64,000 bases of DNA from Moniliella sp. 'wahieum' (taxonomy: Eukaryota), in the NCBI GenBank assembly GCA_003971905.1, contig RSEE01000015.1, positions 1-64,000 of the forward strand. The letters are read 5' to 3'. The notes under the pieces were generated by a model that saw nothing but the letters and a program-made list of their open reading frames with translations, was not told the origin of the DNA and did no database searches. A program made the position numbers and the translations under genes. Shown here piece by piece: positions 93-55,700 of the stretch. The stretch's first letter is position 1, and the number at the start of each line of letters is the position of its first letter.

Positions 93-2055
93 ATGCTAAC
101 CGCCTTTTCCCACCCAGACACCGCCTCGGAGCCTCAGCTGTCTGCTACCTCTGCGCCGGCCGAGGGTGCCGCGCCTGCAGCGCCTACGTCCACCTCCTCG
201 AGCCATCCACCAGCGCGCCGCCCCGGCTTCGGTATCGGCGCCTCCTGCCCCGCGTGGGCCGCTGCCCGAGTACGATCCGAGTATTGTAATTGGCGGGGAG
301 GCTGGGCGTCCGCTGAAGCTGACGGTGGCCCAAGTCAAGTACTTGCAGAACGTGCTCAAAGCTCTCAAGAGCCGGACCGAGGCGCGTGCCTTTCTTGCGC
401 CCGTCGATCCCATCGCGCTCGGTATCCCGCACTACCGTACGATCATCACTCGACCCATGGACCTGGGTACGATCGACATTAAGCTTGCCTTGACCGCGGC
501 CGCGGTCAAGGGCGGGAACAAGCCGACGGAGAAGGTCAAGTTGGCGCCGCGCTGGGGCCTGGATCTGCGACGGGACGTGTATGCAACGGCAGAGGAGGTG
601 GAGGAGGAAGTGCGGTTGACGTTTAACAATACCCGAATCTTCAATGGCCCAACCCACCTGATCTCCCTTGCGGCCGATGTGCTGGAAACAGTGTTTGACA
701 AACAAATCAAGGGCTTACCCAGCCCCGATGCGCCCGAGCCGCGCAAGAGCTTGGAACTGACCGACAGTGCGCGGCCCAAGCGCGAAGTGCACCCGCCCGC
801 GCCGCCGATGCCGTATGTGGAGCAGGAGGCACCCACCAAGCCCAGTACCAAGTACCGACGCGACTCGATGTCGCTGGCGGAAGAAGCGCATTGGGACAAG
901 GTGGCGCGGGACGAAGTGCGGTTTTGTGGCAAGGTGATCAATGAGCTGTTGAAGCCGGTGCACAGTGCGGTGGCATGGGTGTTTTACGAGTTGCCTGACC
1001 CGACGCTGGACTATGCGCCGGCGTACTATGCCATGATCTCCCATCCCATTGCGCTGGACACCATTTTGTCCACCTTGCGCCAAGGCGGCTATGCCGATGC
1101 GAGCGAGTTTGACGCCGACATGCAACTGCTCTTTCGCAACTGCTTCACCTTCAACCCAGCTGGATCGGACGTGCATTTGATGGGCGAACAGCTCAAGGCA
1201 GTGTACGACCGTGCGTTTGCCAAGCTCCCGCCGCCGCGGCCGTACTTGCCTGCGCCGACACCGGAACAAGCCGAGGCACTGCAGGTGGCCACCTTGCTAC
1301 GCGACCAAGCCAACGCCTGGCTCGCTCAGGCCGCCGAATTGGAACACACCCCGACGCCCAAACTGATCCAGCAGGCCCGGCAGGCCCTCAGCTCGCTCAG
1401 TGCGGGCGGCAGCACGGGCGCTGGCGCAGGGGCCGGCCTGGCTCGGGCCGGCTCGCCGCCCAGCACGGCCAAGCGCCGCAAATCGGTGGGCAGCGACGCG
1501 CCCAAGAAACCCCCGGCGAAAAAGGTGAAAAAGACAGTGGAGGAACCGGAAAAGAAGCCCAAGCCCAAACGCAAGCCCAAGCCGAGTGGCGATTCGGACG
1601 AGGAGGATGTACGGGTGGTGACGTACGAGCAAAAGGAAGAGCTGGCCAACAAGATTCAAACCTTGTCGGAGGAACGGATGGATGGGGCATTGAAGATCAT
1701 TGCGGAAGACCGGCCAGAGAGCACCATGGGCGACGAGGAGATTGAGTTGGACATTGACGATCTGTCGCCGCGCACCTTGTATCGGCTTTACCGCTTTGTC
1801 GTGCGACCCAAGGACAAAAAGACGACGCACAGCAAACCCGTCAAGAACGCCAACGATGGTCGCAAACGCGGTACCGGCGGTCTCAAGGGCAAAACGCTCA
1901 ACGAATCCGAAGAAACCGAACGCATTCGCCGTCTGCAGGCGCAGCTGCAACAGTTTGAAGGTACCGCTCTCCCACTTGCTCCGACCGCCCACGATGATCT
2001 GGTCAACTCCGAGTCGTCGGGCGACGAGGAGAGCGACTCGGGCGAAGACTACTAA
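93..2055 (+). CDS. BDF1: BET-family double bromodomain + ET domain protein (Bdf1-like)
   Basis: Bromodomain 1 (FLAPVDPIALGIPHYRTIITRPMDLGTI...NTRIFNG), bromodomain 2 (WVFYELPD...YYAMISHPIAL...LFRNCFTFNP) and ET domain (VTYEQKEELANKIQTL...EIELDIDDLSPRTLYRLYRFV). The ATG at 93 joins the long ORF by an apparent frameshift near 230. Confidence 0.93.
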
Positions 2056-3056: not shown

Positions 3057-4626
3057 TTATTGGCGAGCAGCCAACGACGCCCCCCCCGCCCGCTGGCACC
3101 ACCACCCCGGCCACGGCCGCGGTACCCGCCGCGCCCATTCGGGCGCCGGTGGTTGCGTGGGGTGGGTGTCGGTAAAGTTTTGCGATTGCGGGATGGTGGC
3201 GGCATGCATAGCCGCCTGAGTAGGAGGAATAACGGGCAAGCCGGCTTGTGGGTTAGCCGGAATGGGCGGAAGCCCGGCCGGGGCACGTCGCTGGATCTCT
3301 GCTTGGGCCGCAGCCTCCCGCTCCCGATCGTCAATAAGAGCGGGTGAGACATAGAGTTGCTTGTCGATTGTGCCGGGTATGGGCTGGATTTCGGTACCGA
3401 GCTCTTGTTCGATACGGTAGAGGTTAAAGCGGTCTTCGTACGTGATAAGGTTGATGGCCAGGCCCAAGTGACCAAACCGGCCCGAGCGCCCAATGCGGTG
3501 CAAGTATGTCTCAGCATTCTTGGGGAAGTCAAAGTTGATCACCACATTGACAGCTTGGATGTCAATGCCACGGGTGAGCAGGTCGGAGCAGACCAAATTC
3601 CGGCACGCACCGTTGCGGAAGTCATGGAACACGCGGTTGCGGTGGCTCTGCAGCATCTTGGCGTGTGAGTAAAAGCACGAGTAGCCCAGCTCGGTAATCT
3701 TTTTGGCGAGCAGTTCCACACGGTTAGTCGAGTTGCAAAAGATGATCGACTGGTTGATTGCAGACGGCTGAAAAGGGTGTTGAGGCAGTGCACCTTTTGC
3801 CGCTCTTCGACGTAGGCATAGTACTGAGTCACACCGCGCAGCGTAAGTTCGTCCATCAGGTTGATTTCAAACGCGTTCGTCATGTGCTTGTCCTTGAAGG
3901 ACTTGACGATGAGTGGGAAGGTGGCTGAGAAGAGCATGACCTGCCGGTCACTGGGGAGTAGCGCCAGGAGCTGCTCCATCACCGGGGTAAACTCGGGAGA
4001 AAGTAGTTTGTCGGCCTCGTCCCTAATCGTAGGAGGTCAGCACCCGATGAGAGAGAAGACGCAAAAAACAAAAAAGAAAGCACGTACATGGTGAAGATGT
4101 GGCATTGGGACAGGTCGGCAATGCCCTTGCCGGCCAAGTCGAGGATGCGCCCGGGTGTGCCGACGAGAACGTGGACAGTTTGGGAAAGGCGGAGAATGTC
4201 GTCCTTGAGGCTGGTGCCGCCGGTGGAGACCATGACCTCAACCCCCATGTGTTTACCGAGGGTCTTGGTGACTTGAGATGTCTGAAGTGCGAGCTCACGA
4301 GTAGGGACGAGGATGACGGCTTGAATCTTGTTCTTCTTGGTGTTGAGTTTCTCGAGGGTGGGGATGACGTAGGCACCTGTCTTTCCCGTGCCGTTCTTGG
4401 CACGAGCCAAAATGTCGCGGCCGGTGAGGGCAATGGGGATGGCTTCTTCCTGGATGGGGGAGGGGCGCTCGAAGCCAGCCTCGAAGATGCCCATGAGAAG
4501 CTCGCGCTTGAGGTAGTAGTCTTCAAAGTCGTTGCCCTTGATGTCGGTCACATCGGATGTTTGTGGACGGTCGTCCTTGGGCGGGGCAGTGGCCTGGGCC
4601 TTCCAGTCGGACGGAGCAGAGGCCAT
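3057..4626 (-). CDS. DHH1: DEAD-box RNA helicase Dhh1/DDX6
   Basis: [42 protein letters not shown]. An intron at ~4023-4087 (GTACGT..CTGAC..TAG) restores M-DEAD. Also [21 protein letters not shown] and [10 protein letters not shown]. Frameshift near 3760. The 3' end is approximate. Confidence 0.96.
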
Positions 4627-5151: not shown

Positions 5152-7885
5152 ATGTCCAAGCCCGCCGCGCTCACGCCCGACGAGACGGACGCGCTCAGCG
5201 CTCTTTTTGCCGAGCGTCTCCCTCTCTGGCGCCAAGGCCAAGGACGTGCTCAAGAAGCCCGACGCGGCCCGCCTGCTCCAGCACCTGCTCCAGACTGCTG
5301 CCTCCGGCCCCGTCGAGCCCAAGGTTGCCACCCTCCTGGTTACCGCCGCCACCAGCCCACTCAAACTCGACGCCGACCAGCGCACCTACATTGCCCGCCG
5401 CGCCCTCGATGGCTCGCTCAAGTCCAACGACCAGGTCAACGCCGCCGCCGCCTTCCTCCAGGGCAAGCCTGCCGGCGAGGTGGACAGCAAGGCCTTTGAC
5501 CAGGCAGCCGGGGTCGGTATGTTCCTATCCCCCCCCCCCCCTTGACCTTTTTGTTACGGACTTTTGCCTGCTTACCCTTTCGGGCCTGTTGCTGACGGCT
5601 TTGTGACCAGGCGTGGTGGTGACCCCTGAGCAGGTCAAGACGGAGGTCAGCAGCTATGTCGACACGCACAAGACAGAGTTGGATGCTGCGTTCGGGTGGG
5701 GCAAGCAAGGTGCGATGATGGCCTACCTCAGGGGGCTTCCCTCGCTCCGCTGGGCTGCCCCCTCGACATTAAGAAACAAGTGGAAGGCGTGTTGACGGCG
5801 CAGTATGGCGACCGTACCGAGGCGATGAACAAGGTGCGCGCGGCGGAGAAAGCGGCACGAGAGGCCGCCAAGAACGACGACCGCAAGTCCAAGGCGTCCG
5901 CTGCCAACGCCCATGCCCACAACAGTACCGCCGCCGCGGCCGGGGGCGAACAAGTGGAGGCTGGTGCGCTGGCTCGGCCCGAGGCCATGTTTGAGACGGG
6001 GTTCCTTTCTCGGCTGCACCAGCCGGGGGGCAACCCGCAGACGCACAAGGAGCTCAAAGAACAGCACCTCCGTGCTACTGGTGGCCACGTGGTGACCCGT
6101 TTCCCCCCTGAGCCCAATGGGTTTCTCCACATTGGGCATGTCAAGGCGATTTCGATTGACTTTGGCTATGCTCGGGTGCACAAGGGTCTCACCTACCTTC
6201 GCTACGACGATACCAACCCGAAGCCGAGGAGGAAGTGTACTTCCGTTCGATTTTGGAAAACGTGCGCTGGCTTGGGTTTGAGCCATTTACGGTGACCTAC
6301 TCGTCCGACTACTTCCAGCGGCTCTACGACTTGGCCGTCGACCTGATCAAGCGCGGCGGCGCCTACGTTGACCATTCCACGGGGGAGGAAATCAAAGCCG
6401 AACGCGGTGGCGAGGCCAAGGGCCCCCGGCACGAGTCCAAGTGGCGCAACCGCCCAATCGAGGAGAACCTGGCCGAGTTTGCCAAGATGAAGAGGGCGGG
6501 TACAAGCCTGGCGAGGCCACGTTGCGCATGAAGCAGGACATTCTCGGCAACGGCAACCCGCAGATGTGGGATCTGGTCGTACCGTGTCTTGGCCGCGCCG
6601 CACCACCGTACCGGGTCCAAGTGGTGCATCTACCCTACCTATGACTTTACCCACTGTCTCGTCGATTCCTTTGAGAACATCTCCCACTCGCTTTGCACCA
6701 CCGAGTTCCAACTCGCGCGCGAGAGCTACGAGTGGCTGTGCGATGCAGTGGACGTGTACAAGCCACGTCAGTATGAGTTTGGCCGTCTCTCGCTCGAGGG
6801 CACGCTGACGTCGAAGCGCAAGCTCAACAAGCTCATCCAGTCCGGGCTGGTGACCGACTGGGACGATCCTCGGCTCTACACGGTCATTGCGCTGCGTCGC
6901 CGTGGTGTGCCGCCCGAGGCGTTGCTCGAGTTTGTGTCGGGCCTCGGTGTCAGTACCTCGCCTGCGCTCGTGACGATTGACCGGTTCGAGTGGGCGGTGC
7001 GGGCGCACTTGGAGGCGGTGGTACCGCGGTTGATGCTGGTGCTAGAGCCGCTCAAGGTGGTGGTTGTCGACGATGAGTTGCCCGACGACTGGACCTGCGA
7101 GGTGACCAAGCCCCTGCACCCCAAGGTCCCGGCCATGGGCCAGGCAAGGCAGTGGTGGGCAAGACACTGTACATTGATGCGTCGGATTTCCGCACCGAAG
7201 ATTCGCCCGGTTACTTCCGTCTTGCTCCGGGCAAGACGGTGGGCATCCTCAATGCGCCCTACCCCATCACGGCAGAGCGGTACGAAACCGACGCGAGTGG
7301 CAAGCCGTCGGTGGTGTATGCCAAGTTTGACAAGAGCGGCAAGAAGCCCAAGGCATTTGTGCAGTGGGTCAGTGGTGTGCCAGGCGAGGCGGTGCGCATC
7401 GCCGAGACGCGCATCTTCTCTCGCCTCTTCACCTCCTCCAACCCGGGTGGCGAGCGGACCTGCTCGCCAGCGTCAACCAAGACTCCAAGAAGGTATACAA
7501 GGATGCGCTGATCGAGCGTGCCTTTTGGACCGTCGCTGCCCGCGCCATGGCCGCCGCACGCACCCACGCGGCGGAACGGACAAAGGAGGCCACCGCGCTG
7601 GCCGAGGAGGCGCGCAAACAAACCGGGCTGTTGGAACTGTTGCCGCCCGGGGCTGGACGCGGGGCGCCGGCGCCTAGCCCGGACCAGTTGGTGGGTAAGG
7701 AGGTGGTGCGCTTCCAGGCGATGCGGATCGGCTACTTTACTATTGACCGCGAAGCGGTCCTGCCCGCCGACCTGGCTGCGGTGGCGCAGAAGGGCTTGTC
7801 GGCCGAGGAGGCCAAGACGACCAAGATTGTACTGAACCGGATCGTGGGGCTGAAGGAGGACAGCGTCAAGGCGCAGGTCAAGTAA
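5152..7885 (+). CDS. GLN4: Glutaminyl-tRNA synthetase
   Basis: [15 protein letters not shown] (HIGH), [47 protein letters not shown] (KMSKS-equivalent), [26 protein letters not shown]. Eukaryotic N-terminal extension. Intron at ~5517-5610 plus several frameshifts. Confidence 0.95.
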
Positions 7886-24854: not shown

Positions 24855-26690
24855 TTACTCGAGCCCGGCATGCGGGTCCTCCATCGGCTCGTCGGGTTGC
24901 ACGGTAATCGCATCGTCGATCCGCAAAAGCCCCGTCGCCGCCTCGAGGGCCGACTTGAGCGAGCGCACCTTGGAAACCGTGGGCTCCAGTACGCCCGCCT
25001 TGAGGTTGTCGCGGATTGTACCGTTAAGCAGGTCCAGACCGTAGAACCTTAGGTTCTTCTTGGGGTCCCCTGCACTTGCCACCTGAGCCGCATTGTGGTA
25101 GGCCCGCAACTTGGCGACCAGCTCGGTGCTGTCCTTGGCAGCGTTCACCGCAAGTTGCTTGGGAATGACCAAGAGCGCATTGGCAAATTCGGCAATGGCC
25201 AGCTGCTCCCGGCTGCCCAGCGTGGTGGCAAAATTCTCGAGGTAAATGTTCAGTGCCGTCTCAACCGCACCACCACCGGGAACGACCGAACCACTCTCCA
25301 GCGTACGTTTGATAACTGACAAGCTGTCATGCAGCGACCGCTCCATCTCGTCCAATGCATAGTCGTTCGCGCCACGAAGAACGATGGAGGAGCTGGACAC
25401 GGTCTTGGTGCCCTTGACGAGGATAAGCTCGTCATCCGAAATGCGTTCTTGTACCACCTCCTCAGCAGTACCCAGGTACGAGGCCTCGTACGTCTCCTCC
25501 CCATCCAAGTTGGCCAAGGAGCTGATCAGCTGCCCTCCGTTGCCTTGGCGATCCGACGCAAGTCTTCCTTCCGGCACCGACGAACACCCATCGCGCCCGC
25601 CTCGACAAACTCCTTGAGAACCAAGTCGTCAATGCCCTTGGTCGTCAACACGACATTCGCTCCCGCTGCCAGGATCTTGCGCACACGCTCTAGCGCAATC
25701 TCGCTCTCCCTCGCCCGGATCTTCTCCAACTGGTCCGGGTCATCAATGGTGATGTGGACGCCCATGTGCATGCGCTGCTTGGTAAGATTCATGTCCAAGC
25801 ACGCAATCTTGGCCCCCTTGATGCGTTTCTTCATCGCTGCGAGGCCACCGTGCAGTTCAGCGCGTAGCCCGAAACAAAGAGCGACTCGCGCGCCGATTTT
25901 CCGTGGCCTTGAGCACATTCACAGCCTTGACCGGGTACTTGATCTCCCCGCGCGGGTTGATCGTCTTGACGGCCAGCATGGCGTCAACCGCCAGCTTGGC
26001 GAAAAAGTCATCGTCCGAGCCAATGATCTTGGATGACATGCTTGTCTTGGCCACATTGATCAACGACTCCTTCCCCAGTGCATCCACCTTGGTGCTAAGC
26101 TGGTCCTGGAGGAACTTGATGGCTTCTTTGCAGGCCAGGCGATATCCAGTGATAATCGTCGTTGGGTGAACCTTGGCCTTGACCAGCTCGTTGGCCCGAC
26201 GCAGCAACTCAGCAGCTACAATCACCACCGACGTCGTGCCGTCCCCGACCTTGTCCTGTTGCTGGGCCAGCTCCACCAGGATGCGGCCGGCAGGCTGGTT
26301 GACTTCGAGCAGCTGCAGGATCGTCGCGCCATCGTTTGAAATGGTGACATCACCAATATCGTCCACCAGCATCCTGTCCACGCGGGTCAGTATCGGTGGC
26401 AGCGCGCCCCACCAAGCGGAAGGAAACGTACTTGTCCAGGCCTACTGGGCCAAGGCTGGTCTTGACGATGTTGGCGATCGTCTGCGCGGCGAGAACATTC
26501 TGGTCCCGGATCTCAGCGCCAGAAAGGCGAGAGCCGCCGATGAAGAGGCCAGCGGTGGGGGGTCCTTGGCGAAGGCTGGGATGGCGGAGGTGGGGGGTGC
26601 GGGGGGAAGAAGCGAGAAAGCTACGCGTTGCGGCCGCCGCCGAAGCCAGTGCATGCGCGCCGAAGCCAGCGGAATGACGCTTACGTACAT
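24855..26690 (-). CDS. TCP1: T-complex protein 1 subunit alpha (CCT1)
   Basis: [86 protein letters not shown]. The start codon and first exon are uncertain. Confidence 0.95.
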
Positions 26691-31857: not shown

Positions 31858-33259
31858 TTACCACCCTGCGGCCTGCTTGGCAGTTTGCAACATGGCTGGG
31901 GTGAGATGGGGATACTGCCAAAACGCCATGCCTGCGTCCAGCCCTGGGTGCGTGCCGAAGAAAGACACTTGCCCAGCGTTTGGGGGGTCATGTACCCGCT
32001 CGACGCATCCGCCGTCGTGGCGGGCTTGCCAACGACCAACTTGTTGAGCGGAATGTGCTCGTTGTTGCTAATCTCAAAGATCGAGGAGCCAGGGCAGGTC
32101 CCAGCAGACGTGTGGAGGAGATTGTTGCACGTCTCGTACATCCCCGCGCCTTGGTTGTACGTCTGCACCAAAAAGGCATCAATCGGCGCCGTGTCCTTGA
32201 CTTGGCTGTAAATCTTGCTGTACCCGCGCCCCACTGGCATTGCGAGCTAAAGTAGGGCGCTTGCGGCGCATGGGTAATGACATACTTGCCTTCCGGCAGT
32301 TGCTTCCGCAGCGTCTTTTGCAGTGTCACCAACCACGGCACTGCCCTGCCGTCCATGAACGAGGCCGAATCCTCATAGTCCACATCCACCCCATCCAAGT
32401 CGTATTGCTTGACAAACTGCGCCAGCTTATTGGCCGTCTGCGTAGCATCCTGGCCCGAAAGAAGGGGGTAGTCGGTCGAGCCAAAGGCCGAAACGAGAAT
32501 CTTGACACCCGCCTTGGCATAGGTCTGCTTGATCTGCTTGCGTTGGGCCGGGCTGGTTTGGGCCCAAGCCAGCGCGTTATCCAACGGACCCGAAGTCGAA
32601 GTCCAAAAGGCCAGGATGTAGTGCGTCAACCCCTTGGGCGGCGTAGGGGGGACACCGTTCGTTTGCCACAAGTCGCCATACACGGCAAAAATCGAGTTGC
32701 CATTCGATCCCGAACCCCCGGAGCCACTACCCGAGCCCGGCCCCGAACTTGAACCAGAGCTAGAGCCAGAGCCAGAGCTGGAGCTGGAGCTGGAGCTGGA
32801 GCCAGAACCCGAGCCAGAGCCGGACCCTGAGCCCCACGAGGCCGGTGGGTGCGAAGACGCCGACGACGACAACGACGATGACTTGCTCCCCCACGGACGG
32901 GAGCGGGAGCGGGAGCGGGAGCGGGACTTCGAAGCCGATTCACTGGCCCAGTGCTGCCCGCCGGAGGAGGAAGCGCGGGAGAGGGTAGGCGCAGAAGTGG
33001 AGCTCGACGAGCGCGAATGCGAGTGGGGACGACGCGAGGAGGTCCAGGAGAGCGAAGAGGAGCGGGACCAGCCCGAGGAAGAAGAGGTGGGGGAGGAGGA
33101 CGGGACGCCGGAGGAGGAAGCGCGGTGCGGACGGCAGCGGCGTCCACGGCGGCGCGGATGACGGTCGACCAAGGGGGACTGTGCCGGGTGCGCACCGTGG
33201 GAGGCGGCGACACAGAAGGCGGCACAGAGGGCGGCAAGGATGAGGGTAAGGAGACGCAT
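31858..33259 (-). CDS. Secreted GH18 chitinase with Ser/Gly-rich linker
   Basis: Signal peptide MRLLTLILAALCAAFCVAA, ILVSAFG, catalytic DLDGVDVDYED (DxxDxDxE), ITHAPQAPYF, FLVQTYNQG, KLVVGKP, and a terminal WQY motif. Confidence 0.92.
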
Positions 33260-34043
33260 TGTGAAAAGAGGAGGGCACCGGGCCAGAGGGGACAAGGGGG
33301 AGGACAAGGGGGAGAGCAAGAGCAGAGGTTGTGAGGCACCAGGCCGAAGGAGCACCAGGCTGCGGGGGGGGACACGTCCGGCGTGCAGAGGAGTGGGGTC
33401 GGGGCGGAGGTGAGGCGAGGCGAGGCGAGGCGGTGGGGGGCGGGGGGGAGGAGAATGGGACGGCGGGCGCGTTTAAGAAGCGGCTGGATGGCGCCCTGTC
33501 GGAGGCGTGGGCCGCCAAAGGCGGCAACTCTGGGGACAGCAGAGGGGGCGAGAGTGGCGCCGTGCTGGGCGACGGCAGGCCGGGGTGGGTAGAGATGGAT
33601 ATTTGGGACACTGGGCAGGTGCGGCAGGCGTGGCAGGAGAGCATATAAAAAACGGTGCGTGGCCGGTCTCAGCACGCGCATGACCGGGGCACAGCGCCAG
33701 TGTGGCGGTGCCTGATCTGGGCATGCGGCGGCCCATCCGCCGCGCGCCCATCGGGTGCCTGGTGATCCGGTGCTTAGTGAGTGCCTGCCTGTTCGGGCAA
33801 CCAGGGGGGGTGGGGTTATGGCACGGGGGCCCTGTGGCATAGCCTGCGTGGCTGGGCATGTTCTGGTTGGAGCATGGCCACATCGAAAGGGTCCAGCCTG
33901 TAGATACTCGCCCGTCCACCGCCTAACCTCATTAATCATTGCCATTCCCGTGGCACCCTGTTTCATCCATTGCCCAAGTATCCATCCTCCGCCGTGTGGG
34001 TATAGGTGGGGCGCACGTTGATCAGCCCCCCCCCCACCTCGGC

Positions 34044-38692: not shown

Positions 38693-41600
38693 TTACAATG
38701 CCAAAAACGTGCCGTCTTGCGGGCACCGCGCCTGGGTCGGCCGCAGCAGCGGCCCTTGGCCCAGCAAGCCAAACGCGGCGGACGAGGCGGCGGTCTGGAC
38801 CTGGGCGGTGCTCACCGTGCGCGGCTGGGCGGTCGCCGCCGCCAACAGACGGTTCGCCTCGGCGCGTTGGGCGTCGAGCCGCTGTTGCTCCTGGTGCAGC
38901 TGCTGCCACTCGGACGCCAGCGCCGCTTCCTCGGCCACCAGCAGACTGTCCATCTTCTCCAGCTGGTTCAGCTTGGCCTGCCACCCCTGTCAGCAATCCG
39001 TACGAGGCGAAACATAAGGGCCAAAGAGAAGCACGTACATTCATCTTGAACATCTGGTTCTCCAGCACCCGTCCCACGATCATCTGACACTCCACCTCTT
39101 CGAGCGAGGCCAGCACCTGTGCCTTGGCCGCGGCGGCGGCCAAGGCGAGCGTCGCCGTGTGCTCCAGCGGGGTTCGGGCCGGTGCGGAGGGGTCCAAGGC
39201 TACCGCTGCCGCGATGGCGGGCGGGACGGCATTGAGCAAAAACCCAACCACCTCAGTGATCGGGTTCTTGGCGTCCGACAAGGGCCGTTCCAACCCGTCG
39301 TCGCGCATGAACCGCAACGGTCCCAACGCCGCCAGCGGCACCTGGTCCGTGATCCTCGCTTCCCCGCCCAGTGCCACCACCTGCACCACACATTCGTCCC
39401 GTGTCTTGCCCACATGCGCAGCAACCGCGTCCCAACTGGCAGGGTAAAGCGCCAACGCTTCCCGTAGCCGCGCTGTCTCTGCCTCGTCCCAGCCGCCTTG
39501 GAGGGGGGGTTGGACCAGGCGGAACTGGCCGGCCAACAGCCGGGTTGGGAACTTGCCTTCTTCATAGCACTTGGGGCAGAGTAGGAAGGAATCCACCTGG
39601 ATCGCAGCGAAATGCTTGTCCTTGCACTCGACGCCGCAGGTGGCACAGTGCACGCCATCTCCCCTTGGCAGTTCCTCCTCTCGCCTCGTTTCCACCGCGG
39701 GGGGCGGATTGACCGTTCGGCTTGGCAGGCCCGGGTGAAGGTGAGCGGTCTGCGGCGTGCGGAGGGGGGTGTAAGGCGGGCCTAGCGTCGGCGCGCGGTC
39801 GTCCACCATATAATTGATCAACCCCCACTGCTCCAGGAACGCATGGACGCGCATGATGGCACACATCGCCAGGTAAGTTGCGCCGACACGCGGTAAAAGT
39901 GAGATATTCCTTTGGGTTGAGCCGGAAGGTGGACACCATAAAGTCGCGGTAGGCCTTGTACACGCTCGGCGTCTTGGTTGCGTTCTTGCTATTGAAAAAC
40001 TCGGGTAGCGCACGCTCCTCAATCGGGTGGATGCGCCCCGGGTCAAACCACACGGCAAAGGAGGGTACAACGACGGGCTGCGTCTGAGCCGTAAGCGCTT
40101 TTTGCGTGATCGGTTCCCTCACCTCGCGGCTTGCTGTAATGATCACCTTGGCCTCCGTCTCCGCAGGAAGGGCTTCGGCCATGATCGTATCCGTACCTTC
40201 AGTTGGCGCCGGCCCAAGCCCGGCGGGCAGATCAAAATGCACTTCATTTGAGATCATAGCTTCGTCAACAGCTCCACCCTCCAGGGTGGGAACTTCCACA
40301 GCGGGAGTGGGTTCGATCGGACCTGGCAAAACATGGGGTTCTACAGCTGGTATGGCCGGAGTGGATGCTTGTAGAGAGGGTGCCTCCAACATGGGCGTCT
40401 CCGGGGCTGAGACGTCCGGCGCGGGAGCTTCCAGAGCTGGAGCTTCCAGAGTAGGAGCTTCCAGAGCTGGAGCTTCCAGAGTAGGAGCTTCCAGAGCTGG
40501 AGCTTCCAGAGTAGGAGCTTCCAGATCGGATGCCTCCAGTGGGGCGTGTACATCAACCGATGGTGCTTCCACGACTGGTTCAGCCGGAGCAGAGGGGTGG
40601 GGAGCTGATGGATGCACAGCTGAACCTTCCACATCAGGCGGGATCTCCAGGGGGGCGGGTTCAGGAGCTGGTGCCGCCAGGTCGACAGACTCCACCGGTG
40701 GCGCCTCCAGTGTGGATGGTTCCGGCACTGGGGCCGCGGGCGCTGGGGTCTCTACCGGAACTTCGACTGGAGCTTCTGGCAACGGAGTTTCGGTCGCTGG
40801 AACCTCCGCCACTGGAGCATCCGGCATTGGAGCTTGTGGTACTGGGGGGTGGGACACCAGAGCTTCCCCTGGAGCTTGCGGTACTGGCGCTTGGGGCACT
40901 GGAATTTCCATCGGAGTTTCCACGGGCTCTGCTACCGGTGCTTCCACTGGAGCTTCCACCGACGCTTCCACAGGTACTTCCGCTGGTTCTGCTACCGACG
41001 CTTCCACCGGTTCTGCCACCGGCGCTTCCACCGGAACCTCCGGGTTGGGAGCTTCCACTGAATCTTCGGAATCTGGGGCGATCAGCGATGACCCACTGGC
41101 CTGCAGCGACGGCGGGGGTGCAACAAGGATGGAGTAGGTGCGCTCGCCTTGTTGAGTGTGGCTGGGCAGGGGCAAGGAAGAGAGGGTGGGGAGGTAGTCC
41201 TGCTCCTCGGTCCATTCGTTGAAGCGAGCACTATCTTGGAGCCAAAGCAGGGAAACCTGGCAGGGCGTCTCGAGCGGCGGCGGAGCAAGGGGTGGAAACG
41301 TGCTAGGCAGCCACGTATCAAACGAGCTGGGGTGGCGAACAAGGTGGATGAGTGTCGAGTCTTGCTTGGTGTTGAGAGGACGGAAGGTGTACCCCTGCGC
41401 CTGCGCCTGCCCTTGCTCTCGATCCTGGTCGCCCGCGGTCCCCTGTCCCTCTCCTTCGTTGTTGGAGGGAAGGAGGATGTGCGTGGCATCGGTTGGCTCC
41501 GATACCCAGTCCGCTGTACCCTCGGTCAGTCAGATTCCACAAGCCAGGCGGGTCACACGTACCACCCAATTGGCCTGCGAGGCGTTGCAGGTGCTCGACC

Positions 41601-42046
41601 GTGTCGGGTGCCAGCTGCGGCGCAGCAATGCGGATGGGAGGAAGAAGTCCTTCGTCTGTCAAGCGCGCACGGACAGAGCGGAGGAGGTCGAGGTAAAAGG
41701 GCACGGCTTCCTCCTGGAGGATATCGTGCCAGTCGGGCTTGGCGTGCTGCTGGAGAAAGAAAAGGGCAAACTGGAGTGTCCAGCGGGCGGGGGATGTTTC
41801 CCCTGCTTGACAAGGCAGGAGGAAGGAGGCAGGCAGGCGGACAGGCCGGTCGGGGGACGGATGGGCCAAGTGGAGCGCCTGGAAGGTCTGCAGGGCGCGG
41901 GCGAAGGCGACGAGCTCGGCGGGCGTGAGGGTGGTGGATGGGGTGGGGTAGGGCGGCGCCAGGGCGTGGCTGATGGCAGCGGGGAGCGCGTCGAAGGCGA
42001 CAGGCTCGCTGCCAGGAAAGCTGTTGATGCGTACCTCGAGCGCCAT
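38693..42046 (-). CDS. SWI3/RSC8/SMARCC chromatin-remodeller subunit with N-terminal MarR-BRCT-chromo module
   Basis: SWIRM ([26 protein letters not shown]...[30 protein letters not shown]), ZZ ([14 protein letters not shown]), SANT ([28 protein letters not shown]) and SMARCC-C ([13 protein letters not shown]). The upstream exons match the BAF155 N-terminus. Confidence 0.92.
40424..40524. repeat. Coding minisatellite, 15/30-bp unit encoding ([10 protein letters not shown])n
   Basis: GGAGCTTCCAGAGCTGGAGCTTCCAGAGTA occurs about three times in the acidic Pro-rich linker of the SWI3-like gene. Confidence 0.9.
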
Positions 42047-42679: not shown

Positions 42680-44843
42680 ATGTCCACCAGGCCAACCTTG
42701 CGGCGCACCCTCACCGAGCCCGCCGGCGCCTCCCCCGCGCCCGCCCACCCCCGCATCTTCTCCTCGCTCCGCCGCCACCCCGGGCCACAGCATCGCCGCC
42801 GCCCTCGCGCCCGTCCGCGCCGTGGCCGAGAGCACGGCGAGCCCCTTTATGGTTGGCGCCCTGGGCGAAGATGGGCGACGCAGGAACTTTCACCGCCACC
42901 CGCAGGACCGCGATCCGGAGCTGTTTGATCAGCCGACACTGCCTCCCCCTCCCGCGGCCGGTCCGGAAGCGTGGGATCGTCCCTGCCGCATCGGCGGAGC
43001 CTGTTTGGCCTGCGCCGCAACCGCTCCTACTCGCCCGTCCCGCATCACGGCGAGGCTGCCTCTGAGCGCTCCAGCATGGATCTTGGGCGGGTAGAGGAGC
43101 GCGGTGCTCCTCGTGCCTCCGCCGACTCGGCCCGCCCAAGTTCCGTCGCATCCTCCAGCTCCGATGCCAGCTCCCGCTCCCCCGACGATGGTTTGTCGTC
43201 GGCAACCGCGGGCGGTCCATCGGCTACTGCCCCGAACGCCGATGCAAGCTCGTTTGTTGCTCCGCAACCGGCCGGGGACCTCCACCGGGATGATGCCAGT
43301 TCCGAAGTGGAGCAAAGCAAGATCCGGCAGGAAGTGGTAGACTCGGCCATCCGGACAGCACAGGACGAGTCCGAAGATGATAACAGCGATGTGTCGGACG
43401 ACGAGGCAGATTGGGACATTGACCCCATCCTGCTTGACAACACGATTTACAATGCCAACTACCTGGAGCTGCCTCCAGATGATCCGCGGATTCACCAGGA
43501 TCCTGTCGATGCGGGCGATGATGATCATGCAGGTGCACCCAACGTGGTGCTGAGGGACTTTTGCTCCCAGGTGGACCACCTTAAGCACGCTACCATCGAC
43601 ACGCCAGAGCAGCTGGGGTGCAACCATCTTCAAGTGTCCAACCCGATCTTTGAGCGCAACCGCTGTACAATTACCATTACCTCGGGAGATTGGGCTGGGG
43701 CGCAGGGCAAGCGCACACGGCAGAAGCGGTATGTGGTTGCGTCGGATGGGAGCGAGGAGGCGGCATATGCGGCGGAATGGACGATTGGGACCGTGTTGCG
43801 CGACGGCGACGAAGTGCTGGTGGTCAATGTGATGGAGACAGACATCAAGTTTGACGAACTGGACCGTAAGAACGACACGACTGCGGCGCGTGCAGAGCAT
43901 CAAAGCATTCGTGCCGCCGAAGCGCGAGTGCTGGTCGCACAGTGTACCCGTCTCTTGGAGCGGACGCGACTGTCAGTCAAGGTTGTGACCCAAGCGTTGC
44001 ACGCCAAGAATGCCAGGCACATGCTGCTTGACCTTATTGACTTTTACGAGCCGACGATGGTTATCGTCGGGAGTCGTGGCCTGAGTAGCCTCAAGGGCAT
44101 CCTGCTGGGTTCGACAAGCCATTACTTGGTTCAAAAATCCAGCGTGCCTGTTATGGTGGTGCGCAAGCGCTTGACACTTCCGCCCCTGCCCAAGGCCAAG
44201 GCGGATGTAGTGGCGGATGTGAAGGCGCGGCACCGTGAGCTGCGTGATGCAGCCATCGAGAAGGAGTCGAATGTTACGGACCAGAATCCTGAGCTGGCCG
44301 AGGTGGAAGAGCAAGAAATCAAGGATGCAGCGCTCAAGGAAAAGAAGCCTTCCGAAAACTCGAGCGGCCCACGCATTCCGCATGTGCCTGGTGTCGGGGG
44401 GAAGAAGGCAGCGGTTGCCGCGGAGGAGCGGGCGCATGCTGAGGTGGATAAGGTGCGGGAGAAGGAGGCGCAGCGAGAGCTGGAGCGGGAGAAGCAGCGC
44501 TTTGTCGCCCGTTCGGCCGAAGAAGAACGTGATCGGGTTCGGATGGAGCAAGCCGAGCGTGCGCTCAAGCGGGCCAAGGCGGCAGGCCGTGTCGAGACGT
44601 CATCGATTTCTGAGAAGGAAATCCAGGAGGTGGAAGGCATTGGGTCCGCGGATGGGAGCCACGAGGCGAACGGGCTGCACCATGTGCGCTCAGCGTCATC
44701 CCCATCGCGCCCCCCCACCGCGTTGTTGGGGGGCGGCGGTGGGAGACGAGGCTGGCGGCGCGGCTGATTCTGAAGCGCGGCGGCCGCACGCGCAGACGTC
44801 GCTGGGTTCTCCTTCGCGCACGGATGGCGAGGAGGCTGCCTGA
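42680..44843 (+). CDS. Fungal universal stress protein (USP) domain protein
   Basis: RYVVASDGSEEAAYAAEWTIGTVLRDGD...PTMVIVGSRGLSSLKGILLGSTSHYLVQKSSVPVMVV. ATG at 42680. The 3' end is 44767 or 44843 depending on a frameshift. Confidence 0.9.
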
Positions 44844-52799: not shown

Positions 52800-55700
52800 A
52801 TGGATCCCGCATCTCTCAGCCGCATCGCTTCCGCAATGCAGCGCCCTCGTCCGTCGGCCTGCCCTCGCCGCTCGCTCTCCTGGCAGCTGAACGGCGGAGG
52901 CCAGAGGCTGTCGTCGGGCAGCCGCCTCCATCGCTCCTGCAACCACACCATCCCGATACCCCTCTCTCCACACTCCCCAATCCACCATCGCCACCGCTGT
53001 GGGCCAAGACCGGCCGTGCCGACCCCCGTTCCTGCCAGAGCCACACACGCCGTCCTGAGCGCGCCCCTCATGTCGTCCTCGTCTCGAGAAGCGCTGCCGC
53101 TGCCAATGCCGCACCCGGTCCAGCCTGGCTCCCCGAGCCGCACCCTTGTCTCGGCCGGCACACACTCCTTTTCACGCTCACCGCGATCCTTCCCTTCCTC
53201 CTCCAACCTCTCGTCCCTCTCGTCCTCGCCTACTCCGTCGTTGCTCCCACCCTCGCCCATCACGCCCAACCTGCCCATCACACCTTCGCTTTCTTTGCCA
53301 GAGTGCCACGCCTCCTCTCCGTCTGGCAGAGACTCCGTCTTGGAATCGACAAGTGCCCGCAGTTCTTTCTCCCAACGAAGTGCGCGACCATTGGCCGACA
53401 AGACGACGGCCTGGTGGTCACCTGGATGGATCGATGGTTCCGCTTGGTCGGGTGAAGATGCGCATACAACCTCCCCTTTATCGTCCCAAGACCGCCTGCA
53501 AACCCTCATGCCCCCAAACCGCGTCCCTACACCCGAACGTTCCGCCACCATCACCCCGGCCTGGTACCCGCCCACGTCCAGGCACACTCCTCATTCGTCT
53601 GCCTACGTGGCTGCGGATACAATAACCGGCACCGCCATGGTAGCTCAGAGTCCCGAACCGGTGCACATGGATCTGGGTCCCTCTCCCTCCAAAGCAGGCA
53701 CTGCCCCACCAGGTGATGAGATAGCTTGGTTGATCAATGCGTATTCCACCGATGTACGTTCGTCGGCCGCGTCTGGACATGCTTCACGCCCAGCCCCCAC
53801 GGACAACAAACTGCACTCGGTCTTATCTCCCGTCCCTTCCACCGCGGCAGTATCGCAGCGTCGTCTTACCAAGTGGAGAATACTACTTGGGACCATAAAA
53901 CCAGTGCTTTCCCCCCCTTGGCGCCTACGGTCCAAGTCCGATCGGACGACGGACTGGCTTTCCGTCAAATCCCGTACCACCACAACATCTCCGAGACCAA
54001 CTTGGTCCTCGATGCACATGAAGACGTGGAGGAAGCCGAGCGTGTGTACGGTGGTGGTACCAGTATCGACGGGATAAACACCAGCTCCACGGCCCAAGCC
54101 CGCCCTTATTCCCATCGTGCATCAAGGAGCACGTCTGTCAACCCTGGGTTGAGCCGAATGGCCCATCAATGCTCAACGGTGCCTTGCCGCCCTGTCGTAG
54201 TGGACAAGATGGAGGGCGTGGGGATGGTGAATATCATGACACGACACTGCGAGGGAGCGCAAGTCGCAGGATGATGATCATGGCAATCAACACTCTCCTA
54301 CCACGGAGTGCTTTGACCATGTCCATGGCAGCTATGATGGGCCGTACATTGCCCCTCTTCTTCCGGAAACGCCTCTGTCGTGGTCCCACATTGTCAGAAA
54401 GCCAGTCATTCGCCAATGGCTGTATGATGGAAAGTGAGTCCCACAATCGTATCAGCTACATTGACATGTGATGGCAACATATACTGATACTCGATACCTC
54501 TCTATCAGGTACTATGGTGAAACGCACGAACGGGGGTATCGCGGACCGAACTCGTGTTTGATATGGCAGCTGCTGGTGTTTGTCACATTCTTGCTTCTGA
54601 AGCCGCCGAAGCATCCAATGGGGTGGGCATCGCCAAGTTTGCCATTGTGTTCTACCTTAGTTACTCCATTTGGGGGGACATGCGATCGTGGATCAACCAG
54701 TCCGGTACGGACGATGTGTTGCAACGCCTTGCCGTCCTGGTCTACATGGTTGTAATGGCGGGCTTTGCCGCGAATGCGACGGCGGTCAACATTGTCTTTG
54801 CCGACACAGATGGGTGCCGGGACGAGACGCCTGTCAACAAGGATGAGGGGCTGAGCCGTCGTTGGCTTCCACCCGCCTTGGGCCGTCGTGCCGAGGTGAA
54901 CTCAGGGTTGGGATCGTGTGCAGATACCAGGGCGCACATTGTCGGAGGATACTTCTTTGCTACGGGCTATCGTTCCAGTCTCCATGCAGCAACCGCGTTT
55001 TACGTGTGGGCCAAGGGGATCCGTCTGATTATGCTGGTCTGTTATGGGTATTGGCTCCCGGCGTTCCGTCGGGCGCTATGGATCCAAGCTGGCTGCCTCA
55101 CTGTCCTGGCTGGTATTTTTCTCTCCATCTTGGCTGCTGACAGTTCCATCACGGTAATTGCCCTGACCATGACGGGGCTCGTGACAGATTTAGGACTACG
55201 CTACGCGGTATCGACGGCCACGCAATGGATCCATGGACGCTTCAAGCGGACCTTCAAACCAGGTCATATTCCCAGCCTAGGCCTCGGTCACGTACCCGCC
55301 ATCAACGTGGAGCACATGTCGGAGCGCATGACACTTTTTTGCCTCGTGTCGATTGGTGAAGTGGTCATCTCGAGCATGTTTACAGCGTCATCCAACCCGG
55401 AGCGGTCCGAGGGGGTTTTCCCGCCTTTGGGGCGCTTCGGCCTTGGCCATCACCTGCGCCTTTCTCATCTCATGGCTCACATTTGATGTTCATGGGAGCC
55501 GGACCTATGTGCATGCGCTCCGTCGAGGACCGCTGATCTCTCTCTCCTACACTTCCATCTACTTCCCTCTCTGTGGTGCCGTGGTGCTCCTTGGGTCGGC
55601 CGTGGAACGGATTCTGGACCAAGCCAGCGTCAGTTCCGATTCGATCACTTCCTCATCGATGAGCGAATTGGATGAAAAGCTACGCAGTCGACGTACTGCT

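Follow-up and report, generated by a model that had tools for sequence, protein, structure and literature searches.

Human SMARCC1/BAF155 and SMARCC2/BAF170 (6YXO/6YXP) share one order of regions: a MarR-like domain, a BRCT domain with an inserted chromo-like barrel, SWIRM, SANT and a coiled coil. PMC13580576 describes SMARCC dimers as the central scaffold organiser and mentions preliminary data on nucleosome binding by the SMARCC1 N-terminal domain. According to PMC8099880, the three domains of BAF155 are held together as one unit by a network of hydrogen bonds to which N277, E156 and D284 belong; the human BAF155 chromodomain does not bind methyl-lysine. The closest described fungal proteins are long forms from Ustilaginomycotina (Ustilago, Sporisorium, Malassezia, Tilletia, Exobasidium, Meira, Violaceomyces and others) of ~1000–1270 amino acids (median 1074.5), which their sources name ‘related to swi/snf-related matrix-associated ... 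subfamily c’, ‘Ssr2’ or ‘RSC8’. Saccharomyces cerevisiae Swi3 and Rsc8, Chaetomium Ssr1 and short fungal SMARCC proteins (493–837 amino acids) share SWIRM, ZZ/SANT and the coiled coil with the gene described here.

We analysed a stretch of 64,000 nucleotides, referred to here as the window, in which 42046..38693 of the minus strand is very probably a single three-exon fungal SMARCC-family SWI/SNF scaffold gene with a BAF155/BAF170-type N-terminal module. At ~1081 amino acids the predicted product is similar in length to the Ustilaginomycotina long forms, which were also its best core matches (E 3e-43 to 1e-35). The order of regions is identical and colinear with a family HMM, and the start and the spacing at the exon 1/2 junction are the same; BLASTP identity was 25–40%, and at most 46% over trimmed columns.

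Gene layout on the minus strand

All peptides quoted in a first-pass annotation of this DNA were found on the minus strand at 41194–42046, in two frames (41564–42046, which includes LQRLAGQLG, and 41190–41511). That annotation had taken the LAGQLG/DW join between them for a frameshift; the join is instead a canonical 49-nt intron, 41562..41514 (Table 1). The family HMM, of 1065 positions and built from 32 Ustilaginomycotina proteins, matched with positions 41–189 as far as 41567 and resumed with positions 192–296 at 41511, a gap of exactly two positions, which are the two residues (G and A) across the splice. Across intron 2, the SWIRM-assoc_1 model ran from position 38 on to position 40. Both introns have a GTACGT 5′ site and a CTGAC branch motif, like the intron of the DDX6 gene in the same window. 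The frame changes, first read as frameshifts, are therefore mostly introns, and one is a real break, located within SWIRM.

Table 1. Features of the SMARCC-family gene, with positions counted from the first letter of the window.
Feature	Position	Strand	Description and basis
Exon 1	41563..42046	-	ATG 42046-42044; 161 codons + first base of split codon; translation
Intron 1	41514..41562	-	49 nt, phase 1, GTACGT...CTGACTGAC...CAG; sequence
Exon 2 start	41194..41513	-	BRCT remainder (DWVSE...ATHILLPS), 24-residue low-complexity insert, chromo-like barrel, BRCT C-terminal helix region
Chromo-like barrel	~41263-41391	-	within exon 2
BRCT C-terminal helix region with FNEW...QDY	41194-41262	-	within exon 2
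Pro/Ala/Glu/Val-rich low-complexity linker	40177..41193	-	~339 codons, in frame, stop-free
SWIRM domain	39810..40176	-	interrupted by frame break; Pfam, PDB matches, HMM score 153
Frame break in SWIRM	39862..39864	-	indel (minus 2 or plus 1) in gatgtgtgcc, not intron
Exon 2 remainder, second frame	39039..39863	-	275 codons; SWIRM end, ZZ-like finger, SANT/Myb, coiled-coil start
ZZ-like zinc finger	~39534-39650	-	PDB alignment to RSC8 and Ssr1 ZZ-SANT region
SANT/Myb	39387-39497	-	Pfam Myb
SWIRM-assoc_1 coiled coil, first part	39039-39149	-	Pfam SWIRM-assoc_1
Intron 2	38978..39038	-	61 nt, phase 0, GTACGT...TTGCTGAC...GCAG; sequence
Last exon	38693..38977	-	94 codons + TAA 38695-38693; coiled-coil remainder, C-terminal tail; HMM 968-1060

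Translation of the chosen frames gave ~1081 codons without an in-frame stop, and in the alignment the start Met of exon 1 lined up with that of the fungal relatives. A single stop-free frame of 655 codons (39562–41529) takes in the later half of the module together with the start of SWIRM. All homologous segments that lie in the chosen frames had a GC3 of 70–89%, similar to the 73–76% of DDX6, and the family HMM was colinear with the three frames over the whole length. We read the locus as one gene because the colinear HMM, the shared 655-codon frame, the matching introns and the coding-like GC3 agree, and these frames place the module at the predicted N-terminus of the same polypeptide as the SWIRM–SANT core. 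A scan for bacterial promoters and terminators upstream of the gene returned 0 sites, with models that are irrelevant to a fungus.

The SWIRM–SANT core and the N-terminal module

By sequence, the predicted protein is a member of the SMARCC/Swi3/Rsc8 family. Pfam SWIRM (PF04433) scored 58.2 bits (cut-off 28.6) at residues 490–545 of the 655-codon frame, with the last 18 model positions falling on residues 1–18 of the second-frame piece, and the SWIRM matches in the PDB were to SMARCC1/2, Ssr1, RSC8 and SWI3 (E 1e-46 to 6e-20). SANT/Myb (PF00249) was matched at second-frame residues 123–159 by a thin margin (25.0 bits, cut-off 24.4), and the same segment aligned to the SANT domains of RSC8, Ssr1 and SMARCC in the PDB. 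The coiled-coil model SWIRM-assoc_1 (PF16495) scored 27.3 bits (cut-off 27.2) over positions 2–38 before intron 2 and 20.6 bits over positions 40–82 after it, and the region was colinear with family HMM positions 922–1060. Pfam ZZ (PF00569) gave no match in the SMARCC frames at E up to 1; the ZZ-like segment aligned to the ZZ region of RSC8 and Ssr1, with the C-x2-C pairs kept. This putative finger between SWIRM and SANT, as in fungal proteins, and a much longer, repeat-rich linker set the gene apart from the human ones. This linker contains tandem repeats with units of 12 to 60 nt at 40424–40539 and 40766–41042 (TRF), and it spans ~339 codons where the family HMM has 133 positions (297–429) between the flanking matches.

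The C-terminal half of the module, on the evidence of its sequence matches, is a BRCT domain with an inserted chromo-like barrel that closes in a FNEW..EEDY-type segment. When the 107-residue exon-2 piece was searched with phmmer against 177,635 distinct PDB sequences, only three were returned, all of them SMARCC1 or SMARCC2 (E 2.2e-8, 2.3e-8 and 1.6e-6); the best alignment placed residues 41–106 on 191–259 of SMARCC1 chain 6yxo_A. SWI3 (825 amino acids), RSC8 (557) and Ssr1 (694), which are in the same PDB set, were not matched by this piece at E up to 10, which fits the first-pass statement that yeast Swi3 and Rsc8 lack the module. Among fungal relatives, 46 were matched at E 1e-16 to 2e-6, and W67, W90, E99, D105 and Y106 of the piece, invariant in 34 relatives, are retained here. 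Also kept are the FNEW asparagine and the QDY aspartate, which were matched to BAF155 N277 and D284, the offset between chain index and residue number being inferred. Compared with human SMARCC1, the FNEW...DY segment is common to both, whereas the window's BRCT domain has a 24-residue low-complexity insert and its chromo strand reads HLVRHPSSF in place of the aligned HWGFYPDSY. The substitution of some chromo aromatics, already remarked on in the first-pass annotation, was borne out by comparison with the 34 fungal relatives: V, R and F stand here at positions that are W in 28, Y in 30 and Y in 31 of them. With these residues, the aromatic cage of a canonical methyl-lysine-binding chromodomain is absent from this copy. 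Folded alone, the exon-2 piece gave a poor model (pLDDT 59.0), and its Foldseek rows to 6yxo/6yxp (TMq 0.26, rmsd >12 Å) were discarded as structural support.

For exon 1, a fold prediction and a transitive profile match suggest that residues ~1–132 are a MarR-like, SWIRM-assoc_2-like domain, and that residues ~136–161 form the first strand and helix of BRCT. The AlphaFold (AF2) model of exon 1 had a pLDDT of 88.3 and a pTM of 0.83. VIA-align superposed model residues 4–161 on residues 33–192 of 6yxo_A (Z 16.1, rmsd 2.8 Å over 151 residues, ~11% identity to human SMARCC1), with the next unrelated chain at Z 3.2 only. Foldseek, the structural comparison with the BAF155 N-terminus that the first-pass annotation had proposed, placed 6yxo/6yxp in its top three rows (probability 1.00, TMq 0.59–0.64), all other listed rows having TMq ≤0.24. 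The profile link ran through an Entomortierella protein, P0041: the exon-1 family profile matched its residues 6–171 in hhalign (97.6%, E 3e-12), and P0041 itself scored 76.2 bits with PF16496 over residues 4–141, together with a weak BRCT match. Direct searches were negative. In Pfam, at E up to 1, neither N-terminal piece was matched by any model, PF16496 included; phmmer with exon 1 found no SMARCC chain in the PDB; and a PDB profile search with a seven-sequence exon-1 alignment returned 35 rows without SMARCC, the best being uS10 at E 0.15. Neither N-terminal piece found a protein at E up to 0.001 in word-indexed searches, which yielded 2354 and 45 candidates; the ESM Atlas gave no usable match to exon 1, and a metagenome scan with exon 1 produced 428 pattern stretches of which 0 were confirmed. 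Exon 1 matched only six of 1.84 billion representatives in a full HMMER scan, all of them exon-1-sized ORF calls of 192–324 amino acids. The resemblance to SMARCC1 is not due to chance: phmmer with exon 2 returned SMARCC1/2 only, and the exon-1 fold matched only the BAF155 module. The first-pass identification of a SWI3/RSC8/SMARCC-family gene that joins a BAF155/BAF170-type module to the SWIRM-ZZ-SANT core is supported by HMM, phmmer, profile and fold evidence.

Divergence of the copy and the frame break in SWIRM

As assembled, the open reading frame is broken inside SWIRM. The Val codon of ...NLPGDV (39864–39862) and the Cys codon of CAIMRVH... (39863–39861) overlap by 2 nt. In four solved homologues the first-frame piece ends at 6kag_B 170, 6lth_N 494, 5gjk_A 73 and 23cp_N 187, and the second-frame piece begins at 171, 495, 74 and 188 of the same chains. 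Because the flanking residues are adjacent in all four structures and the codons overlap, the break is an indel and not an intron. Similar breaks were seen in other genes of the window. The two DDX6/Dhh1 frames meet between residues 242 and 243 of 4ct4_B, with a 1-nt codon overlap at 3758; CCT changes frame between Pfam model position 293, which starts at 25538, and position 294, which ends at 25532, with two further frame switches at 25830–25900; and for GlnRS, the segments matching model positions 45 and 47 lie in different frames and overlap at 6217–6226. Since three other genes of the same 64-kb window are broken in this way, the most likely cause of the SWIRM break is an indel in the assembly rather than a biological change.

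The copy is also strongly divergent. In a tree of the core (121 rows) its terminal branch was 1.96, compared with a median of 0.075, a next longest branch of 0.72 and end branches of 0.01–0.2 for the Ustilaginomycotina long forms. The tree failed to place it, giving a long-branch join with Blastocladiella rows at a support of 19. The basidiomycete origin put forward in the first-pass annotation has the best core matches, in Ustilaginomycotina, as its sole basis. Near-invariant positions are altered (Q for an E present in 34 of 34 relatives, E for an N and S for a D each present in 32 of 34), as is a ‘FLQLPIED’-type segment that flanks SANT. Hidden compensating frameshifts were considered as a source of the divergence and rejected, since neither of the two remaining frames contained a segment that matched the family HMM significantly. 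One relative, P0006, has a similarly divergent exon 1 (48% identity), and reading it through past its last aligned residue opens G-T, the next two residues of the window's frame.

These features could instead reflect a pseudogene in decay, or an additional SMARCC paralogue that is relaxed or neofunctionalised; the SWIRM break would then be genuine, and the genome would have a canonical SMARCC gene at another site. The intron-free break falls within a motif that hardly varies among 34 relatives, and the extreme branch length with its poorly supported placement, the changes at invariant or near-invariant positions, the missing Pfam ZZ match and the expanded linker would all fit such decay or relaxation. 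We nevertheless consider it improbable. Intron-free frame switches also occur in the highly conserved DDX6, CCT and GlnRS genes, so that indels appear to be a property of the assembly; the ~1081 codons contain no in-frame stop, GC3 periodicity is coding-like, and conservation is patterned, with a SWIRM score of 153 bits and retention of the ZZ-region Cys pairs, the SANT tryptophans and the network N and D. Moreover, at least one other organism, the source of P0006, has an exon 1 that is similarly divergent. We regard it as far less probable still that 41180–42046 is a separate small MarR/BRCT/chromo gene beside an ordinary short Swi3/Rsc8 gene. Prokaryote-style calls in public collections do list proteins of exon-1 size (the six HMMER matches, P0006–P0011); however, the intron splits BRCT, so exon 1 alone would be an incomplete fold, the chromo/BRCT half and the start of SWIRM share the stop-free frame 41529..39562, and the family HMM is colinear throughout. 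In addition, in all 41 listed relatives with a complete N-terminus a single protein carries both module and core, arranged as here. A single SMARCC-family gene interrupted by an assembly error thus remains the preferred reading.

Fungal distribution and proposed role

The module followed directly on an exon-1-like region in 46 of the 120 best fungal relatives listed, mostly Ustilaginomycotina, together with Dimargaris-, Dispira- and Syncephalis-type fungi and an Entomortierella. It was not matched in the other 74, at least one of which (P0028) is a fragment that lacks its N-terminus and belongs to a module-bearing cluster, and the module was not found in the listed Agaricomycotina, Pucciniomycotina, Ascomycota, Mucorales-type and Blastocladiella rows. 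Many of the module-bearing relatives are already named SMARCC-, Ssr2- or RSC8-like. Because so many of the best relatives bear the same module and are already annotated, the architecture is not novel: it is known in many annotated smut-type and early-diverging fungi, and the find is correct but ordinary. The first-pass annotation had itself noted that prior annotation in many basidiomycetes would lower the novelty, and such is the case; its expectation that automated annotation would miss the gene did not hold, since full-length orthologues of ~1000–1270 amino acids are annotated in many fungi, and precomputed Pfam results assign PF16496 to 4 of the 120 listed relatives. In the literature, no description of the fungal distribution pattern of the module was found; supplementary conservation figures of PMC8099880/PMC13580576 (fig. 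S21), outside the scope of our analysis, are possibly relevant.

The first ~270 residues are predicted to form a MarR-like winged-helix-type domain packed on BRCT with the inserted chromo-like barrel; by analogy with the family, this module may serve as a rigid protein- or nucleosome-contact unit and not as a methyl-lysine reader. Methyl-lysine reading is not proposed because the human chromodomain has lost this binding and the present copy has lost more of the aromatics. SWIRM would hold the Snf5/SMARCB subunit in the nucleosome-binding lobe, and the coiled coil would dimerise and organise the base module with SMARCD/E-type subunits. The module itself is probably an ancestral trait that this lineage has retained and budding yeast has lost. 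More tentatively, and on balance doubtfully, within Dikarya it may be left only in Ustilaginomycotina, with SMARCC strongly accelerated in this lineage and in the source of P0006, and the chromo/BRCT surface and SANT flank remodelled. If true, such acceleration would suggest that the module has a different partner or that its role has been relaxed, and not that it was simply retained.

For annotation, the frequent small indels of this assembly will break gene models. PF16496 was above cut-off in only two of ten orthologues scanned; it thus under-detects the fungal MarR-like domain, and the BRCT/chromo half is without any Pfam model, so that domain annotation of the fungal proteins is incomplete. 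Beyond annotation, the importance of the find is small. It indicates that the SMARCC N-terminal module predates animals and has been lost repeatedly among fungi, as public protein sets already imply, and a smut-type fungus could be a simple genetic system for the poorly understood N-terminal module of BAF155.

Gene structure and continuity

All of the peptides that the first-pass annotation had quoted as a BAF155-type N-terminus are encoded on the minus strand, from 42046 to 41194. The junction between the two N-terminal frames, which that annotation had treated as a frameshift, proved to be an intron of 49 nucleotides, and GTACGT and CTGAC signals are common to both introns of the SMARCC gene and to the DDX6 intron in the same window. 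Together the exons comprise about 712 + 275 + 94 = 1081 codons. The SMARCC gene and the neighbouring universal stress protein (Usp) gene form a divergently transcribed pair.

Features of the SMARCC gene, alignment to the family HMM, and neighbouring genes
Feature	Position	Strand	Detail
Start codon	42046	-	ATG
Exon 1	42046-41563	-	last residues ...LAGQLG, then one base of a split codon (41563)
Intron 1	41562..41514	-	49 nt, GTACGT...CTGACTGAC...CAG
Exon 2	41513-39039	-	one frame break inside, 39862-39864
Intron 2	39038..38978	-	61 nt
Exon 3	38977-38693	-	TAA at end
HMM 41-189	41953-41567		
HMM 192-296	41511-41194		
HMM 430-536	40176-39856		
HMM 534-588	39866-39726		
HMM 665-836	39656-39198		
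HMM 922-971	39179-39030		
HMM 968-1060	38980-38708		
BET-family double bromodomain ORF	100-2052	+	Pfam
GH18 chitinase-like ORF	31991-33472	-	Pfam
Universal stress protein (Usp) ORF	42929-44764	+	Pfam
LtrA-like ORF	54521-55483	+	Pfam

A family HMM of 1065 positions, derived from 32 long proteins of Ustilaginomycotina, aligned colinearly across the gene and gave no significant match in the other reading frames. At the intron 1 junction, exactly two HMM positions remain for the two residues spanning the splice. Because of this colinearity, and because a 655-codon stop-free frame (39562-41529) holds both the second half of the N-terminal module and the start of SWIRM, the N-terminal region was rejected as a separate gene. 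The linker between module and SWIRM, about 339 codons compared with 133 positions in the HMM, contains in-frame tandem repeats (40424-40539 and 40766-41042; periods of 12, 15, 24, 30, 36, 45 and 60 nucleotides) that encode EAPVEA-type repeats, among others.

In the core, Pfam identified SWIRM (58.2 bits), Myb/SANT (25.0 bits, cut-off 24.4) and SWIRM-assoc_1 (27.3 bits, cut-off 27.2), the last continuing into the final exon. Pfam returned no ZZ domain match in the core; a ZZ-like segment is alignable to the ZZ region of RSC8 and Ssr1, with its Cys pairs retained. Core matches in the PDB sequence search were SMARCC1, SMARCC2, Chaetomium Ssr1, RSC8 and SWI3.

The N-terminal module and BAF155

Neither N-terminal piece matched Pfam at E up to 1, and exon 1 (161 codons) matched no PDB sequence, either as a single query or as a seven-sequence profile. 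Three independent lines of evidence tie the region to BAF155 (SMARCC1): a sequence match in exon 2, the predicted fold of exon 1 and a profile match to P0041, an Entomortierella protein. Residues 41-106 of the 107-residue exon-2 piece matched SMARCC1 (6yxo_A 191-259) with E 2.2e-8, and SMARCC2 matched with E 1.6e-6; these were the only returns among 177,635 PDB sequences. An AlphaFold2 model of exon 1, made from a 36-row alignment (pLDDT 88.3), retrieved only 6yxo and 6yxp, both structures of the BAF155 module, at Foldseek probability 1.00 (TMq 0.59-0.64), every other row listed having TMq 0.24 or less. VIA-align placed model residues 4-161 onto 33-192 of the 6yxo chain (Z 16.1, rmsd 2.8 A, 151 residues; Z of the runner-up chain, 3.2). 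The exon-1 family profile matched P0041 residues 6-171 (97.6% probability, E 3e-12), a protein that carries PF16496 (SWIRM-assoc_2, the N-terminal SMARCC domain; 76.2 bits, residues 4-141) followed by a weak BRCT match at 145-190. BAF155 is thus covered over residues 33-192 and about 217-285 (the latter via an inferred numbering offset), nearly the whole crystallised module. Folded by itself, the exon-2 piece gave a poor model (pLDDT 59.0). Half of a BRCT domain would be expected to behave in this way, and the Foldseek rows of this model were discounted as evidence.

Frame break and divergence

The frame break in SWIRM is an indel and not an intron. The piece ending ...NLPGDV aligns to 6kag_B 100-170, 6lth_N 424-494, 5gjk_A 3-73 and 23cp_N 117-187, and the CAIMRVH... 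piece takes over at 171, 495, 74 and 188, respectively; V and C are therefore neighbours in the homologues, and since their codons (39864-39862 and 39863-39861) overlap by two nucleotides, no intron fits. Similar switches between adjacent residues, with no space for an intron, occur in three other, highly conserved genes of the window: DDX6/Dhh1, where frames meet between residues 242 and 243 of 4ct4_B with a 1-nucleotide overlap at 3758; a CCT chaperonin subunit, where Pfam model position 293 starts at 25538 and position 294, in another frame, ends at 25532, with two more switches inside 25830-25900; and GlnRS, where model positions 45-47 overlap between frames at 6217-6226, with more switches at 6470-6600. 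These breaks look like 1-nucleotide losses in short homopolymer runs. The assembly thus seems indel-prone, and the SWIRM break is probably an assembly artefact.

In a FastTree analysis of 121 core sequences the window row had an end branch of 1.96 (median 0.075, runner-up 0.72) and was not placeable (support 19); the highest identity of its core was 46% over 261 trimmed columns. This divergence reflects acceleration of this particular gene rather than noise throughout the sequence, since the DDX6 fragments of the window resemble human DDX6 very closely. The main rival reading, a relaxed paralogue or pseudogene, is improbable: conservation follows a pattern, with a SWIRM score of 153 bits and with zinc ligands and network residues retained, the gene frames contain no in-frame stops, and their GC3 is coding-like. 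A similarly divergent exon 1 (P0006, 48% identity) also exists in one other source, its read-through past the last aligned residue starting with G-T, the continuation residues of the window frame. A functional, fast-evolving SMARCC orthologue is, on these sequence features, the best reading.

Distribution in fungi and likely role

Of 8000 candidates scored against the core, 1294 proteins matched with E no higher than 0.001. Top matches were Ustilaginomycotina proteins of about 1000-1270 residues, with source names such as 'related to swi/snf-related matrix-associated actin-dependent regulator of chromatin subfamily c', 'SWI/SNF and RSC complex subunit Ssr2' and 'RSC8'. Among the best 120 of the 1294, 46, of 782-1269 residues (median 1074.5), had a match to the exon-2 module piece with a domain E under 1e-3; the remaining 74 measured 493-837 residues (median 667.5) and include at least one N-truncated fragment from a module-bearing cluster (P0028). 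Module-bearing Ustilaginomycotina listed include Ustilago, Sporisorium, Malassezia, Tilletia, Exobasidium, Meira, Ceraceosorus, Violaceomyces, Testicularia and others; outside that group, the matches listed include Dispira, Dimargaris, Tieghemiomyces, Mycoemilia, Syncephalis and Entomortierella. The module was not found in the Agaricomycotina, Pucciniomycotina, Ascomycota, Mucorales-type or Blastocladiella rows of the best 120, a result that concerns these rows and not whole groups, and the module piece did not match full-length yeast SWI3 and RSC8 or Chaetomium Ssr1 in the PDB set at E up to 10.

The long SMARCC architecture is already public; its PF16496 domain is under-annotated, being precomputed in only 4 of the best 120 of the 1294 and scoring above cut-off in 2 of 10 relatives scanned. 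A literature search found no paper on the fungal distribution of the module. The window gene is an unusually divergent member of this known, publicly annotated fungal architecture, in an indel-prone assembly. The first-pass observation is confirmed; its interpretation holds in substance but overstated the novelty. Two observations concern public records. P0046, whose record assigns it to the fern Adiantum nelumboides, is nearly identical to the Meira miltonrushii SMARCC P0040 (end branches 0.009 and 0.012, support 100), which suggests fungal contamination of the fern assembly. The exon-1-only 'proteins' P0006-P0011 (192-324 residues), from public metagenome and run-assembly sets, extend 0-38 residues beyond the last exon-1-aligned residue and resemble the output of prokaryote-style gene calling on fungal contigs that ran on into an intron.

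PMC13580576 gives SMARCC-family dimers the part of central organiser in the base module, places SWIRM in the lobe that binds the nucleosome, and mentions preliminary data for nucleosome binding by the SMARCC1 N-terminal domain. According to PMC8099880, the three BAF155 N-terminal domains form one unit through a hydrogen-bond network including N277, E156 and D284, a conserved cleft may bind a peptide, and the chromodomain does not bind methyl-lysine. Among 34 relatives the FNEW asparagine (N) is near-invariant and the QDY aspartate (D) invariant, and the window gene has both. The suspected substitution of chromo aromatic residues was borne out: V stands where 28 of the 34 relatives have W, R where 30 of 34 have Y, and F where 31 of 34 have Y. 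Retention of the network N and D, loss of the chromo aromatics and the reported behaviour of the BAF155 chromodomain suggest, by extension from the family, that the module would have a structural role, in contacting proteins or the nucleosome, and not act as a histone-mark reader.
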